Virus genome (UHGV): UHGV-0246901
DNA: 11,108 nt
DNA from: a virus
Direction: 5' to 3' (one strand)
Positions 29 to 1,823 of this stretch are shown here, in pieces. The notes under the pieces were generated by a model. That model searched no databases. It was not told where the DNA came from and worked only from the letters and a program-made list of their open reading frames with translations. Both the position numbers and the translations under genes were made by a program. Each line of letters begins with the position of its first letter. Positions within the stretch are counted from its first letter, which is position 1.

Positions 29-56
29 TTGACATAGAAAATTTGGTGAGTATACT
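29..56 (+). promoter_or_regulatory. sigma70-like promoter P1 (TTGACA 29-34, 16-nt spacer, TATACT 51-56)
   Basis: Near-consensus -35 and -10 hexamers with 16-nt spacing, upstream of the 299-1329 module; nearest upstream promoter-like sequence on this strand. Confidence 0.5.
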
Positions 57-86
57 GAGCAGCATAAACCAACGGGTACTCACCAG

Positions 87-125
87 CATCACTTAAGAGT
101 CTTCTCAGAGGGTTTTTAAGTGATG
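87..125 (+). repeat. IR-A copy 1: perfect 10-bp inverted repeat CATCACTTAA/TTAAGTGATG with 19-nt spacer
   Basis: Arms 87-96 and 116-125 are exact reverse complements. The spacer GAGTCTTCTCAGAGGGTTT can pair further (CUUC/GAGG inner stem). Near-identical copy at 1479-1517. About 30 nt downstream of the P1 -10 element, so near the 5' end of the predicted transcript. Confidence 0.7.
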
Positions 126-131
126 TGTAGC

Positions 132-223
132 CCGGTACGGTTTGGTACGGTAGTGTTCTGTGAGGTCGGGTAATGTAAGGTAAGGTATGGGTGGATGGTA
201 GTAGCCACATTAAAAATCTACCA
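132..223 (+). repeat. GT5-H unit 1: (NNGGT)n pentameric tract 132-191 plus stem-loop 196-223
   Basis: Eleven consecutive pentamers ending in GT (ccggt acggt ttggt acggt agtgt tctgt gaggt cgggt aatgt aaggt aaggt), then stem TGGTAG(196-201)/CTACCA(218-223) with loop TAGCCACATTAAAAAT. No ORF; period is 5, not 3. Confidence 0.7.
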
Positions 224-229
224 AGTTTC

Positions 230-258
230 TAAAGAGTCTTCTGTTGAGGGTTCTTTAC
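230..258 (+). repeat. third copy of AAGAGTCTTCT motif (variant with extra bases) ~40 nt upstream of the first CDS
   Basis: TAAAGAGTCTTCTGTTGAGGGTTCTTTAC matches the spacer of IR-A (TAAGAGTCTTCT..AGAGGGTTT) but lacks the flanking 10-bp arms. Confidence 0.4.
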
Positions 259-298
259 AAACAACTTAACAATCAACTAAAGTGTGGAGCTAAATGCT

Positions 299-886
299 AT
301 GAAACTGTTAAATATCAAAATCACTGGTACTCGTCCTTTCCTGAGCCACGCAGATACGCTGTCAGACCCATTAAACCCTCTGACAAAGTATCACAAGTCT
401 CTGTCCAGTAAACGTAAAAAGACTGACGAAGACTATGCGCTCTTAGCAGAAAGCCAACTGGTAACTTCTTGTTACTACGATGAGCAGCTAGGTTTTGTTA
501 TGAACGGTGAGATGATTGAGGCTTGTATCAAGTCTGGTGCAAAGCTCAACAAACTTGGTAAGGTAATTGACCGAGCCATTATGCTGACAGATGTAGTCTT
601 CCCAATGACTATCAAGAACTGTCCAGCAAACCCACAAGAACTTGCTAAGAATCCAGATTTTATCTATGCTAAATCTGTTAAGATTGGTACAGCACGAGTT
701 ATGAGCTACCGTCCAATCTTCCGTGACTGGTCTGTAGAGTTTGGTTTGATGTTCGATGAAGAGCAAATTACCCGAGAGGAACTCCTGATGGTTCTGGAAA
801 ATGCTGGCAACCTTTGTGGTGTAGGTGATTGGCGTCCACGCTTTGGTCGTTTTTCTGTAGAAGTTATTTCAGAAGGTAACGTTTAA
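299..886 (+). CDS. hypothetical protein (~195 aa)
   Basis: Track ORF 284..886 begins at GTG. ATG at 299 is preceded by GGAG (286-289) at ~9 nt and is the preferred start. Stop TAA 884-886. No recognisable motif by eye. Confidence 0.7.
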
Positions 887-888
887 TT

Positions 889-1329
889 ATGAATACAAAA
901 GCATTAGCAGCAAAGTTTAGTTACGGTGACACTGTATCACATTCTGAGATGGACACCTTCTTAGGTATTGTGAAGCCAACTTATCAAGGTGACATTGTTA
1001 AGTACGAAGATGAAATGAAGGCTTATGCACTTACACGTCTAAACCGACTTGAGAAGTTTATTGAAAAGCTTCTTAAAGAAGAGAAGATTTATCTGGTTGC
1101 TTCAATGGGTGTTGGTTATCGTGTGGTTGAACCTAAGCATCAAGCAACTATTGCAAAACGTAAAATGTCTGGTAAGATTGGTCGTGCTTTAAAGCAAGCC
1201 ACTCAAGCAATTGAGAATGTGAATACTATGGCACTTAGTCATCAAGAACGTTCACGACTGATTGAACAGCAAAACCATTTAGCTGCTATGAAAGCTAACA
1301 TTAACAAGCAACGTAGAAAACCTTTCTAA
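889..1329 (+). CDS. hypothetical protein (146 aa, basic C-terminus)
   Basis: ATG two nt after the upstream stop (translational coupling); consistent codon usage; followed directly by an intrinsic terminator. Confidence 0.7.
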   Translation: MNTKALAAKFSYGDTVSHSEMDTFLGIVKPTYQGDIVKYEDEMKAYALTRLNRLEKFIEKLLKEEKIYLVASMGVGYRVVEPKHQATIAKRKMSGKIGRALKQATQAIENVNTMALSHQERSRLIEQQNHLAAMKANINKQRRKPF

Positions 1330-1337
1330 GTTGACTA

Positions 1338-1363
1338 GGAAGCCTCTTCGGAGGCTCCTTTTT
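1338..1363 (+). terminator. rho-independent terminator T1
   Basis: GC-rich stem AGCCTC(1341-1346)/GAGGCT(1351-1356) with TTCG tetraloop, followed by CC and T5 (1359-1363), immediately after the stop of 889-1329. Confidence 0.7.
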
Positions 1364-1390
1364 AAAAGGTCTTTAAACAGGGTCTTTTAA
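1359..1390 (+). repeat. M motif copy 1: TTTTTAAAAGGTCTTTAAACAGGGTCTTTTAA (tandem GGTCTTT)
   Basis: GGTCTTT at 1368-1374 and 1381-1387; whole 32-mer repeated at 1609-1640 with one indel and one substitution; in both copies it starts at the T-run that follows a hairpin. Confidence 0.55.
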
Positions 1391-1391
1391 T

Positions 1392-1478
1392 AAGGTAGGA
1401 TAGGGTGGTGTATGGTTTGGTAAGGTTGTGTAAGGTAAGGTATGGGTAGTTAATCGGAGCTACATTAAAATTCGATTA
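1392..1478 (+). repeat. GT5-H unit 2: pentameric tract 1392-1441 plus stem-loop 1451-1478
   Basis: Ten phased pentamers, nine ending GT; stem TAATCG(1451-1456)/CGATTA(1473-1478), loop GAGCTACATTAAAATT. Stem sequence differs completely from unit 1 but pairing is preserved. Confidence 0.7.
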
Positions 1479-1517
1479 CATCACTTAAGAGTCTTCTAAG
1501 AGGATTTTTAAGTGATG
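1479..1517 (+). repeat. IR-A copy 2: CATCACTTAA / 19 nt / TTAAGTGATG
   Basis: Arms 1479-1488 and 1508-1517 identical to copy 1; spacer GAGTCTTCTAAGAGGATTT differs at 2 positions, one of which converts a G-U to an A-U pair in the inner helix. Confidence 0.7.
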
Positions 1518-1528
1518 TGGGGCGAGGC

Positions 1529-1608
1529 TCGGTGAGGTGGGCTAAGGTATAGCGCGGTGTTGTTCGGTATGGGTAGTTAGTCTCAGCTACATTAAAATGA
1601 GACTTACC
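1529..1608 (+). repeat. GT5-H unit 3: degenerate pentameric tract 1529-1568 plus stem-loop 1572-1608
   Basis: Same 5-nt phase but only about 6 of 10 pentamers end in GT; stem AGTCTCA(1579-1585)/TGAGACT(1598-1604) with outer GGTA/TACC, loop GCTACATTAAAA; followed by T5, so this copy is terminator-like. Confidence 0.6.
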
Positions 1609-1640
1609 TTTTTAAAAGGTCTTTAAAAGGGTCTTTTAAC
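1609..1640 (+). repeat. M motif copy 2: TTTTTAAAAGGTCTTTAAAAGGGTCTTTTAAC
   Basis: GGTCTTT at 1618-1624 and 1630-1636; near-identical to 1359-1390. Confidence 0.55.
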
Positions 1641-1732
1641 AAGGTATTGTATGGTGTAGTTTGGTTAGGTATGGTTAGGTGTGGTAAGGTAAGGTATGGA
1701 AGGATGGCAGTAGCCTTATAAAAAATCTGCCA
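1641..1732 (+). repeat. GT5-H unit 4: (NNGGT)11 tract 1641-1695 plus stem-loop 1705-1732
   Basis: Eleven consecutive pentamers all ending GT (aaggt attgt atggt gtagt ttggt taggt atggt taggt gtggt aaggt aaggt); stem TGGCAG(1705-1710)/CTGCCA(1727-1732), loop TAGCCTTATAAAAAAT. Confidence 0.7.
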
Positions 1733-1750
1733 AATAAGCTATAAAATCTG

Positions 1751-1785
1751 TTGACAAGTCAGGTGTTATAGCTTATTTTTATACT
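1751..1785 (+). promoter_or_regulatory. candidate sigma70-like promoter P2 (TTGACA 1751-1756; -10 TATTTT 1774-1779 at 17 nt, or TATACT 1780-1785 at 23 nt)
   Basis: Consensus -35 hexamer in the same TG-TTGACA context as P1, but no consensus -10 at correct spacing; sits ~40 nt upstream of the operon starting at 1824. Confidence 0.35.
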
Positions 1786-1823
1786 CAATGTAATACAAAA
1801 TTTAATATAACTTTGAGGTCGTT

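Follow-up and report, generated by a model that had tools for sequence, protein, structure and literature searches.

The region at positions 29-1823 of the analysed window, a viral DNA stretch of 11,108 nt, carries two genes between repeat units that recur on both sides of them, and the question is what these repeats have to do with the enclosed genes. The window is Felixounavirus DNA, and its closest relative is phage KhF1 (95%). In the region, promoter P1 is followed by a single repeat unit, the two genes, and a terminator, and then come three further units and promoter P2. The DNA ligase gene and the gp86 homolog border the gap in which it lies, and genes nearby code for ligase, a small HTH protein, dihydrofolate reductase, and thymidylate synthase. 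An earlier, sequence-only reading had listed promoters, two ORFs, T1, repeats, and hairpins, and all of these were found where it had placed them (Table 1). The moron-like layout that it proposed also fits the P1-genes-T1 arrangement. In our analysis, this virulent, Felix O1-like phage very probably has here a complete VIPR (Viral Interference Programmable Repeat) locus, of type II and belonging to the SUSP1 clade.

Table 1. Features of the region and their positions in the window
Feature	Positions	Strand	Description
P1	29-56	+	TTGACA 29-34, 16-nt spacer, TATACT 51-56; 11/12 matches, the best of the window; predicted strong sigma-70-type early promoter
HP1 (IR-A)	87-125	+	18-bp RNA hairpin with G.U pairs, 5' of vrRNA1; MFE -17.5 kcal/mol, z -5.5
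vrRNA1 tract	126-186	+	NN: GT CC AC TT AC AG TC GA CG AA AA AA
vrRNA1 3' tail	187-223	+	Predicted H-type pseudoknot: S2 191-194 with 205-208; S1 196-202 with 217-223
HP1 variant (motif)	225-262	+	Upstream of vipr; MFE -12.1 kcal/mol, z -3.1; in vipr+ loci only
vipr	299-886	+	195 aa; minimal RAMP, predicted to polymerise on vrRNA with one protomer per pentamer
vap1	889-1329	+	146 aa; VIPR accessory protein, immediately downstream of vipr
T1	1341-1362	+	Intrinsic-terminator-like stem 1341-1356, then T-run; 3' of vap1
HP1 (M)	1357-1395	+	MFE -10.6 kcal/mol, z -3.0
vrRNA2	1396-1478	+	Tract 1396-1441, NN: AG AG GG AT TT AA TG AA AA; pseudoknot tail 1442-1478
HP1 (IR-A), copy 2	1478-1518	+	MFE -22.8 kcal/mol, z -8.7
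vrRNA3	1518-1605	+	Tract 1518-1568, NN: GG GA TC GA GG AA AT GC GT TC; pseudoknot tail 1569-1605
HP1 (M), copy 2	1607-1644	+	MFE -10.4 kcal/mol, z -2.3
vrRNA4	1645-1732	+	Tract 1645-1695, NN: AT AT GT TT TA AT TA GT AA AA; pseudoknot tail 1696-1732
Array-end inverted repeat	1732-1786	+	19-bp + U-run, terminator-like, encloses the P2 -35; MFE -17.8 kcal/mol, z -4.3
P2	1751-1779	+	TTGACA 1751-1756, 17-nt spacer, TATTTT 1774-1779; 10/12 matches; predicted to drive conserved downstream genes

The two genes had been described as of unknown function. Database searches gave a similar picture: neither protein was matched in Pfam, NCBIfam, or PADLOC, only 'unknown function' families were hit in PHROGs, and a permissive Rfam search of the whole window returned two sub-threshold chance matches, none within the region. 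The description is nevertheless outdated, because the proteins are nearly identical to the experimentally characterised Vipr and Vap1 of phage SUSP1. Vipr shares 191 of 195 residues (98%) with SUSP1 Vipr, above the 90% by which the preprint defines the clade, and Vap1 shares 145 of 146 (99%). Both ORFs are intact. Vipr proteins of this clade are described as minimal RAMPs of ~20 kDa that have an RRM core, a glycine-rich loop, and a thumb. The AF2 model of Vipr was obtained with a pLDDT of 94.9, and its C-terminal Gly-rich segment contains the family-invariant residues G170, G174, R179, G183, and F185. In the model, the β-hairpin 122-141 with R138 fits the role of the thumb. The residues that recognize GGY in the SUSP1 Vipr structures (bioRxiv 10.64898/2026.04.26.720927), i.e., H17, R138, D177, W178, R179, E71/M72, and C173, are all present at these positions, so that every Vipr contact residue is retained. 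For Vap1, no fold was assigned by the analysis, and the predicted DNA-binding fold was not confirmed. SUSP1 Vap1 enhanced protection (bioRxiv 10.64898/2026.04.26.720920).

In SUSP1, experiments have covered vrRNA expression, the Vipr-vrRNA filament, dsDNA binding, repression, and the effect of Vap1, and in both SUSP1 and P. fulva the vrRNAs co-purify with Vipr and repress transcription (bioRxiv 10.64898/2026.04.26.720920, 10.64898/2026.04.26.720927). The VIPR mechanism rests on these two preprints, which are not peer-reviewed. The results computed in the present study are the homology, the RAMP fold, the repeat code statistics, the pseudoknot covariation, the in-silico skip rule and targets, and the presence or absence of the module with its junctions.

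P1 and P2 are the top two plus-strand sigma-70 matches in the window, and P1 was kept in 27 of 27 related loci parsed. T1 is conserved in all vipr+ loci, and its T-run overlaps the following spacer hairpin. Transcription from P1 would yield vrRNA1, vipr, and vap1. Beyond T1 there are three more vrRNAs. The internal repeat units showed no promoter match, and no separate promoter was found for the three vrRNAs downstream of T1. The placement of T1 between vap1 and these three vrRNAs was counted against the VIPR explanation.

Several repeat families are common to the leader and the trailer, i.e., D1 (107 nt, three copies), D6 (101 nt), and the further families D7 and D9. Within the window, GT pentamer-periodic arrays were found on the plus strand only and in this region only, at 109-203, 1384-1453, and 1628-1712, and a weaker fourth array (1518-1570) was detected by in-phase parsing. 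In the genome papers of Felix O1, wV8, and UAB_Phi87, other repeats are given, and part of the unit appears as 'DR_4' in the wV8 annotation. The 66 distinct arrays collected from relatives contain 9-19 pentamers, most often 11, and their lengths are strictly congruent modulo 5. This congruence, together with the strong pentamer consensus, shows that the arrays are not a product of chance. Over 749 pentamers the consensus is N-N-D-G-Y, with G at 97%, Y at 98%, and the first position of the triplet occupied by G (78%), T (14%), or A (8%), while the NN positions are hypervariable and close to free. In vipr+ arrays, 96.9% of triplets fit D-G-Y (77.5% GGY and 19.4% [AT]GY). The code agrees with that of the published vrRNAs, which have 9-16 YNNGG repeats with conserved GGY and hypervariable NN (bioRxiv 10.64898/2026.04.26.720920). 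For vrRNA1 to vrRNA4, the pentamers number 13, 10, 11, and 11 by unit tally, or 12, 9, 10, and 10 by in-phase NN parsing. The vrRNA4 array is identical in two other phages (L018 and L030), and the copy in L029 has one extra pentamer.

The tails of the units form a second conserved part. The 'H' hairpin of the earlier list is part of a 3' pseudoknot of two helices and 11 pairs, with compensatory changes in 9 of the 11. In the alignment (A3), 90.9% of cells are paired against 73.6% in shuffles; the covariation score was reached by 0 of 500 shuffles, and slid controls stayed at or below 49%. A 3' pseudoknot is also present in the SUSP1 cryo-EM structures (bioRxiv 10.64898/2026.04.26.720927), and an invariable tail of this kind is a defining trait of the clade. 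The mature vrRNA would thus be about 85-100 nt long, with 10-13 GGY-NN pentamers and a 3' pseudoknot cap.

Between the units, the elements listed as 'IR-A', 'M', and the pre-gene 'motif' are three variants of one 38-41-nt hairpin (HP1), and the IR-A copies correspond to the inverted repeats I1/I8/I21. At 87-125, the minus strand folds worse (-9.9 kcal/mol) than the plus strand. The inter-unit hairpins may be spacers or processing signals. The HP1 at 87-125 is presumably cut away from mature vrRNA1, because the size reported for mature SUSP1 vrRNA is about 100 nt (bioRxiv 10.64898/2026.04.26.720920).

A 5-nt period with a conserved triplet could have other causes. The arrays might serve as a TRAP-like sponge or attenuator, as an origin, R-loop or primase-site cluster, as an antisense Rho-loading site, or as a G-quadruplex. 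TRAP sites of Bacillus trp leaders, with 9-11 (G/U)AG triplets and 2-3-nt spacers, are similar in having one subunit per approximately 5-nt repeat, a conserved triplet whose first position prefers G over U, and free spacers, and the modal array length of 11 adds to the resemblance. The arrays are also G-rich on the non-template strand, lie downstream of a strong promoter, and stand beside replication genes. However, TRAP has an unrelated fold and closes into an 11-mer ring, and its spacers carry no information, whereas the VIPR filament is an open helix of variable length in which the spacers are the targeting code. The repeat number is variable (9-19), the antisense motif is R-C-H and not the Y-C of Rho, and the Y is 98% conserved, which a G-quadruplex does not require. 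On these grounds a TRAP-like ring sponge, a T7/T4-type primase-site cluster or origin, an antisense rut site, an RNA G-quadruplex, a boxA-like antitermination element in HP1, BREX GGTAAG sites, RfaH ops-like sites, and SD-like decoys were dropped. Above all, the target matches restricted to a 1-nt skip (see below) and the linkage to Vipr spoke against them, and such array mechanisms explain neither. The explanation has very little probability.

The linkage extends beyond this phage group. When loci were collected by the GGTNN pattern alone, 36 unrelated IMG/VR loci were found to encode a Vipr-family protein beside the arrays. In the VIPR interpretation, Vipr, a 22-kDa minimal Cas7-like RAMP, would polymerise on the tract, each pentamer taking up one protomer, and sequester every GGY, leaving the NN dinucleotides exposed. 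These dinucleotides would pair with double-stranded DNA, and every third target base would be skipped. The Vipr-vrRNA complex would stay on the DNA and block transcription, and Vap1 would enhance the effect.

For the SUSP1 clade, the published rule is that the NN dinucleotides specify a dsDNA target with a 1-nt skip, that natural targets are found in competing mobile elements, and that the own genome is not targeted. The skip rule was visible in silico in the related guides. With a 1-nt skip, 37 of 70 guides reached an NN match of at least 85% in seven satellites, whereas with skips of 0, 2, or 3 none of the 70 did so in the same seven. The first satellite alone gave marginal matches only. Over 12 satellite copies, the best matches of the window guides were 85-94% and none was perfect. 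The best target of vrRNA1 (21/24) lies in the satellite 185-aa gene and that of vrRNA2 (17/18) covers the RBS and start codon of the 93-aa gene; neither score was reached in 200 permutations. The best target of vrRNA3 (17/20; reached by 1 of 200 permutations) is in the large recombinase gene, and that of vrRNA4 (18/20; 2 of 200) is 32-62 nt upstream of the 185-aa gene. Three of the four targets cluster around the start of a single satellite operon, in a stretch of a few hundred bases, and their positions are homologous in several satellites; the fourth is in the integrase gene. In the two intragenic targets, including that of vrRNA3, the skipped base falls at the codon wobble position. No self-targets were found, as the best scores in the own genome were at null level, and the exact full-length vrRNA1 target pattern had no match in IMG/VR.

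The satellite predicted as target is an integrated element of about 10 kb that has no vipr and carries its own vrRNA. It borrows Felix O1-type tail genes: its baseplate and tape measure proteins are 68% and 31% identical to KhF1 proteins. Most likely, the four guides of this phage target this satellite element of E. coli and silence it. We infer that the spacer hairpins are processed and that the satellite is repressed in vivo by this phage.

Within a genuine VIPR locus, the main targets could still lie in host genes, in prophages of another kind, or in Felix O1-like competitors, or the system could be decaying in this lineage. The matches of the window guides are imperfect, the search covered part of the E. 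coli pangenome, and the recurrent loss of vipr-vap1 in relatives suggests dispensability. Against this stand the clustering of three guides around one operon start, with homologous positions in several satellites, and the published result that 18 of 20 SUSP1-clade guides with identifiable targets map to such satellites (bioRxiv 10.64898/2026.04.26.720920). The intact ORFs, the complete set of contact residues, and the D-G-Y fit of 96.9% of vipr+ triplets speak against it as well. Such a difference in targets or state is unlikely, and satellite silencing is retained as the reading.

The locus was compared with known systems. It resembles the SUSP1 type II VIPR locus in its genomic position (the ligase-gp86 gap), in having the same P1 and P2, in the order vrRNA-vipr-vap1-T1-three vrRNAs, in its 98% and 99% identical proteins, in the tail types and pseudoknot, and in the satellite family predicted as target. 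It differs in the host phage (Felixounavirus here, Suspvirus for SUSP1), in the NN content and length of all four guide tracts, and in the trailer order of spacer-hairpin and tail variants. With the Class 1 CRISPR-Cas backbones (Cas7/Csm3/Cmr4 on crRNA), VIPR shares a protein that oligomerises on guide RNA and whose thumb flips bases periodically, and a variable guide with a constant structured handle as cap. Unlike CRISPR-Cas, the window has no repeat-spacer array, Cas1/Cas2 adaptation module, or other cas genes. The VIPR guide is noncontiguous, with two of every five RNA bases read against two of every three DNA bases, and VIPR is phage-encoded, binds dsDNA without PAM, and represses without cleavage (bioRxiv 10.64898/2026.04.26.720920).

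The region is plastic, as the sequence-only reading had proposed. Among phages otherwise about 95% identical, the repeat units per genome vary from one to five (27 loci parsed). The locus was present in about 231 Ounavirinae records and vipr-vap1 in about 118, so the two-gene module is accessory and missing from about half of the relatives. Deletion junctions lie inside the repeat units, and in the pair that shows this most cleanly, L010 and L004, the junction falls in a 10-nt zone at the array-tail boundary. P1-HP1 and tail-P2 are intact in every vipr-less locus, and one or two orphan guides are retained. These loci indicate recurrent gain or loss of the effector genes by recombination between guide units, with orphan guides remaining in about half of the relatives.

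The same plasticity is what would be expected of PeSL-like promoter/stem-loop cassettes that shuffle unrelated, recently acquired genes and have no RNA function of their own. In T4-type phages, short stem-loop repeats likewise flank variable early-region ORFs, and homologous recombination alters the gene content. The variable number and order of units between close relatives and the missing genes with junctions inside units agree with this. However, PeSL are found at many loci, whereas the units are at a single one: in the complete 88-kb KhF1 genome, arrays, HP1, and tail motifs were confined to the homologous ligase-gp86 locus. Each PeSL cassette carries an early promoter beside its stem-loop, whereas here promoters are on the outermost elements only, and the internal units have no promoter match. 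Furthermore, the variable NN positions match the satellite under one specific skip rule, and the enclosed protein is a RAMP that binds exactly such repeats, with arrays adjoining Vipr homologs in unrelated phages. The repeats are very probably functional guide RNA genes of about 90 nt, bound by the Vipr encoded between them, and not passive brackets around unrelated cargo, so that repeats and genes would make up a single functional system. Of the shuffling interpretation, the plasticity with junctions in the units stood and the role of the cassettes as PeSL-like shuffling elements did not. Shuffling of the PeSL type is largely refuted and has very little probability left.

Roughly half of the Felix O1-like phages, Felix O1/FO1a among them, have one or two orphan vrRNAs between P1 and P2 and no vipr anywhere in the genome. 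Such orphans might be transcribed and used rather than being dead scars, for example by loading in trans onto the Vipr of a co-infecting relative or as a decoy titrating the Vipr of a rival. The vipr-less satellites, too, presumably use their own vrRNA with Vipr supplied in trans. Several orphan guides reach an 85-95% NN match to the satellite, and the orphan tails and promoters are intact. On the other side, the GGY motifs of orphans are somewhat more degraded than those of vipr+ arrays (GGY 69% vs 77.5%; non-DGY 7.1% vs 3.1%), and the lone Felix O1 guide had no target above chance. Its exact pattern gave one match in GTDB representative genomes, in a Vallitaleaceae MAG, at about the chance level, as we estimate that 20 specified bases would occur roughly once in 596 Gb. 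Orphan use is improbable. A simpler explanation of the orphans is that recurrent deletion between direct repeats left them behind, since such deletion cannot remove the last unit.

The system is already known, as a near-identical one is described in bioRxiv 10.64898/2026.04.26.720920 and 10.64898/2026.04.26.720927. The residual novelty, i.e., the orphan guides and the recurrent loss of effector genes, is modest, and the published picture is unchanged. In addition, the 1-nt-skip code and satellite targeting were replicated independently from sequence alone, and predicted targets were given to four new guides. VIPR has been reported as a minimal system for RNA-guided dsDNA binding that needs no PAM and may be older than CRISPR. 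The window adds an intact, naturally occurring locus from a Felix O1-like phage, and phages of this group are in wide use for typing and biocontrol. Parts of the satellite family are detectable in approximately 10% (567/5,426) of complete E. coli genomes, so phage performance on such strains could depend on whether vipr is present.

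The window comes from a Felix O1-like myovirus (Felixounavirus). It matched 270 phage records, the closest being KhF1 (95% identity across 97% of the window). On one side of the region at 29-1823 is the DNA-ligase end of the early/replication cluster, and on the other, after P2, a conserved gp86 homolog. Further downstream are the genes for a small HTH protein, dihydrofolate reductase and thymidylate synthase, followed by convergent tail-fibre and baseplate genes. All elements listed in the sequence-only reading were present. Its description, i.e., a two-gene module bracketed by reshuffled repeat cassettes, was accurate; genes and cassettes together form one RNA-guided interference system that has already been described.

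In a June 2026 preprint, this system, VIPR (Viral Interference Programmable Repeat), was reported to comprise Vipr, a minimal RAMP protein encoded by phages, and Vap, an accessory protein, with guide RNAs (vrRNAs) on the flanks. In a vrRNA, 9-16 YNNGG repeats with conserved GGY and hypervariable NN are followed by a constant 3' tail; in the SUSP1 clade, this tail is a pseudoknot. Pairing with dsDNA is through the NN dinucleotides and skips one target base per repeat, transcription is repressed by the complex, and Vap1 enhances protection. Targets could be identified for 20 SUSP1-clade guides, and 18 of these map to an E. coli satellite (bioRxiv 10.64898/2026.04.26.720920). Cryo-EM revealed a helical filament with one Vipr protomer per repeat and the 3' pseudoknot as cap, GGY being held by Vipr H17, R138, D177, W178, R179, E71/M72 and C173 (bioRxiv 10.64898/2026.04.26.720927).

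Phage SUSP1 was itself among the matches (H41, window 13-1808, 89%). The window Vipr and Vap1 were 98% and 99% identical to the SUSP1 proteins, and the two loci agree in their 1+3 layout and in their hairpin and tail types. The window locus belongs to the SUSP1 clade, which has been characterised experimentally, and is therefore not new. Almost no Vap1 homologs were found beyond this clade, and an attempted fold assignment of Vap1 gave none. In the KhF1 GenBank record, neither vipr nor vap1 is annotated as a CDS, and in wV8 part of a vrRNA unit appears only as repeat 'DR_4'.

Coordinates of the features and predicted guide targets (- strand and + strand as marked)
Feature	Sequence	Position	Strand	Remark
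P1	window	29-56	+	promoter
9-bp inverted repeat	window	45-53 / 76-84		GGTGAGTAT … GTACTCACC
vipr	window	299-886		intact ORF
vap1	window	889-1329		intact ORF
T1	window	1341-1356		terminator-like, then T-run
19-bp inverted repeat	window	1732-1786		followed by U-run
P2	window	1751-1779	+	promoter
gp86 homolog	window	1824-2207		N-terminus MKKILLAAAMVMAMNLPVNA
Intrinsic terminator	window	5315-5338	both	bidirectional
Tail-fibre genes	window	5990-8380; 8427-9614	-
Annotation gap	L001 (KhF1)	6004-7670
Orphan guides	L002 (FO1a)	1512-1735
Orphan guides	L005 (UAB_Phi87)	1529-1880
Orphan guides	L008, L010, L014, L016, L020, L022, L025, L029
Hairpin-loop insertion	L009, L011, L013	about 3640-3700		trailer; …TTTAAATTATATTCGATAGAGTATCTCATAGGG…
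GGYNN arrays	L040	3396-3843	-
GGYNN arrays	L050	2302-3406	+
GGYNN arrays	L128	3233-4335	+
GGYNN arrays	L047, L039, L060, L085
Satellite vrRNA	L152	14966-15090
Satellite vrRNA	L153	about 12,730-12,825
vr1 target	satellite	5' part of 185-aa gene		best 21/24; reached by 0/200 permutations
vr2 target	satellite	RBS and start codon of next, 93-aa gene		best 17/18; 0/200
vr3 target	satellite	large recombinase gene		best 17/20; 1/200
vr4 target	satellite	32-62 nt upstream of 185-aa gene		best 18/20; 2/200

P1 and P2 were the top + strand sigma-70 matches in the window. The leader and the 460-bp trailer are joined by long imperfect direct repeats (families D1, D6, D7 and D9), and the 'IR-A' palindromes (I1, I8 and I21) occur twice. 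One G.U-rich spacer hairpin of 38-41 nt, in variant forms, makes up the elements read as 'IR-A', 'M' and the pre-gene 'motif'; its + strand RNA folds well (-10 to -23 kcal/mol) and its - strand folds worse. In three relatives, a ~20-nt insertion was found in the loop of one such hairpin, so the loop tolerates extra sequence. The 9-bp inverted repeat overlaps the P1 -10 element, has its left arm upstream of the likely start site and is kept in all related loci; judged from sequence, it may be operator-like. The 19-bp inverted repeat carries the P2 -35 hexamer in its loop (RNA MFE -17.8 kcal/mol, z -4.3) and looks like a terminator of the vrRNA array that overlaps the next promoter.

Pentamer-periodic GT arrays were confined to this region and to the + strand in the window, and to the homologous locus in the complete KhF1 genome. 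Taken by itself, the pentamer pattern pointed to a putative single-stranded nucleic acid-binding protein with one subunit per 5 nt, and TRAP-like, primase/origin, rut and G-quadruplex roles were considered. The locus was gathered from 27 further genomes, in which the basic unit is ordered spacer hairpin, pentamer array and hairpin tail, with 1-3 units upstream and 1-3 downstream of the two genes. In 749 pentamers from 66 distinct arrays, the consensus was N-N-D-G-Y (G 97%, pyrimidine 98%), the first triplet position being G (78%), T (14%), A (8%) or C (0.3%) and both N positions nearly free. Arrays contain 9-19 pentamers (mode 11). Their lengths are strictly congruent modulo 5, and the hairpin-to-tail register is thus preserved. 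The same arrays reappear in differing contexts, e.g., L018 and L030 carry window unit 4 unchanged, and L029 has it with one pentamer more. A gapless alignment of 27 distinct tails supported an H-type pseudoknot (helix 1, columns 5-8/19-22; helix 2, 10-16/31-37); 90.9% of cells pair compared with 73.6% in shuffles and at most 49% in slid controls, and 9 of 11 pairs showed changes on both sides.

When complete E. coli genomes were searched by BLAST with the trailer, a vrRNA-like sequence was found within a ~10-kb island flanked by recombinase genes. The island encodes a baseplate protein and a tape measure protein with 68% and 31% identity, respectively, to KhF1 proteins, and no Vipr or Vap1 homolog was found in it. 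Parts of this family were detectable in 567 of 5,426 genomes. When 70 distinct guides of the window and its relatives were scanned against seven satellite copies, the 1-nt-skip rule gave NN matches of 85% or more for 37 of them, and skips of 0, 2 or 3 did so for none. The published code is thereby replicated independently. The four window guides were scanned over 12 satellite copies, with 200 permutations each; no self-targets above the null level were found in the window or the KhF1 genome. At the intragenic sites of vr1 and vr3, the skipped base is the codon third position, as also described in the preprint (bioRxiv 10.64898/2026.04.26.720920). The satellites' own vrRNA has a pentamer tract and a tail with a compensated stem (GTCG/CGAC). 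The satellites have no Vipr homolog and presumably use the Vipr of the helper phage.

An exact IMG/VR scan for seven consecutive GGTNN matched at least 120 contigs. Plain microsatellites accounted for many of these. Many unrelated contigs, however, carried arrays of 9-20 pentamers with heterogeneous spacers, often with many arrays in tandem and frequently with GGYAG at the end. With a profile built from homologs of the first protein, a Vipr-family member was found adjoining the arrays in 36 of these IMG/VR loci; array and protein are therefore linked far beyond the Felix O1 group. In seven unrelated contigs, 3-11 GGYNN arrays follow one another directly, with short conserved punctuation (…GGCTA, …AAGGAATGGTTT, …GGGCAG) and an adjoining Vipr-family ORF. 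They probably represent other VIPR types that differ in array architecture.

Elsewhere in the window, the gp86 homolog has a signal-peptide-like N-terminus, and its sole family match was a PHROG of unknown function. Several internal nucleotide repeats (families D2, D4, D5 and D8) are common to the two tail-fibre genes, in agreement with those reported for gp76/gp77 of Felix O1 (PMC3185647). The intrinsic terminator separates thymidylate synthase from the convergent late genes; a weak Rfam 'STnc100' match was merely this hairpin. Two records, H31 (GU169904.1, Staphylococcus phage SA1) and H78 (MG065664.1, Campylobacter phage A132), are 93-96% identical to the Felix O1-type region and are probably mislabelled or contaminated.

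By tblastn, Vipr was found in 133 phage records, i.e., about 118 Ounavirinae at 90% identity or more and 15 distant ones from Gordonia, Mycobacterium, Pseudomonas and Listonella phages. The locus itself was found in 231 records, so about half of the relatives are entirely without vipr-vap1, including most Salmonella-infecting ones, e.g., Felix O1/FO1a. These keep P1, P2 and, between them, 1-2 structurally intact 'orphan' vrRNAs. Some orphan guides still match the satellite at 85-95%; for the lone Felix O1 guide, no convincing target was found. Degeneracy is slightly higher in orphan arrays than in those of vipr-positive loci (GGY 69% vs 77.5%; non-DGY 7.1% vs 3.1%). In the clearest pair, vipr-less L010 equals vipr-positive L004 minus a deletion, with the junction in a 10-nt zone at the array-tail boundary. 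The plasticity expected from the sequence-only reading, i.e., a module present or absent with breakpoints inside the repeats, was borne out. Other vipr-less loci join a leader unit to the last trailer unit, the two coming from different vipr-positive relatives, which suggests that deletions between direct repeats occurred repeatedly and independently. Three features are not reported in the main texts of the VIPR preprints and are modest additions to the published picture: that vipr-less loci with orphan guides occur at high frequency, that effector genes are lost via recombination between guide units, and that the spacer hairpins form a conserved punctuation element.
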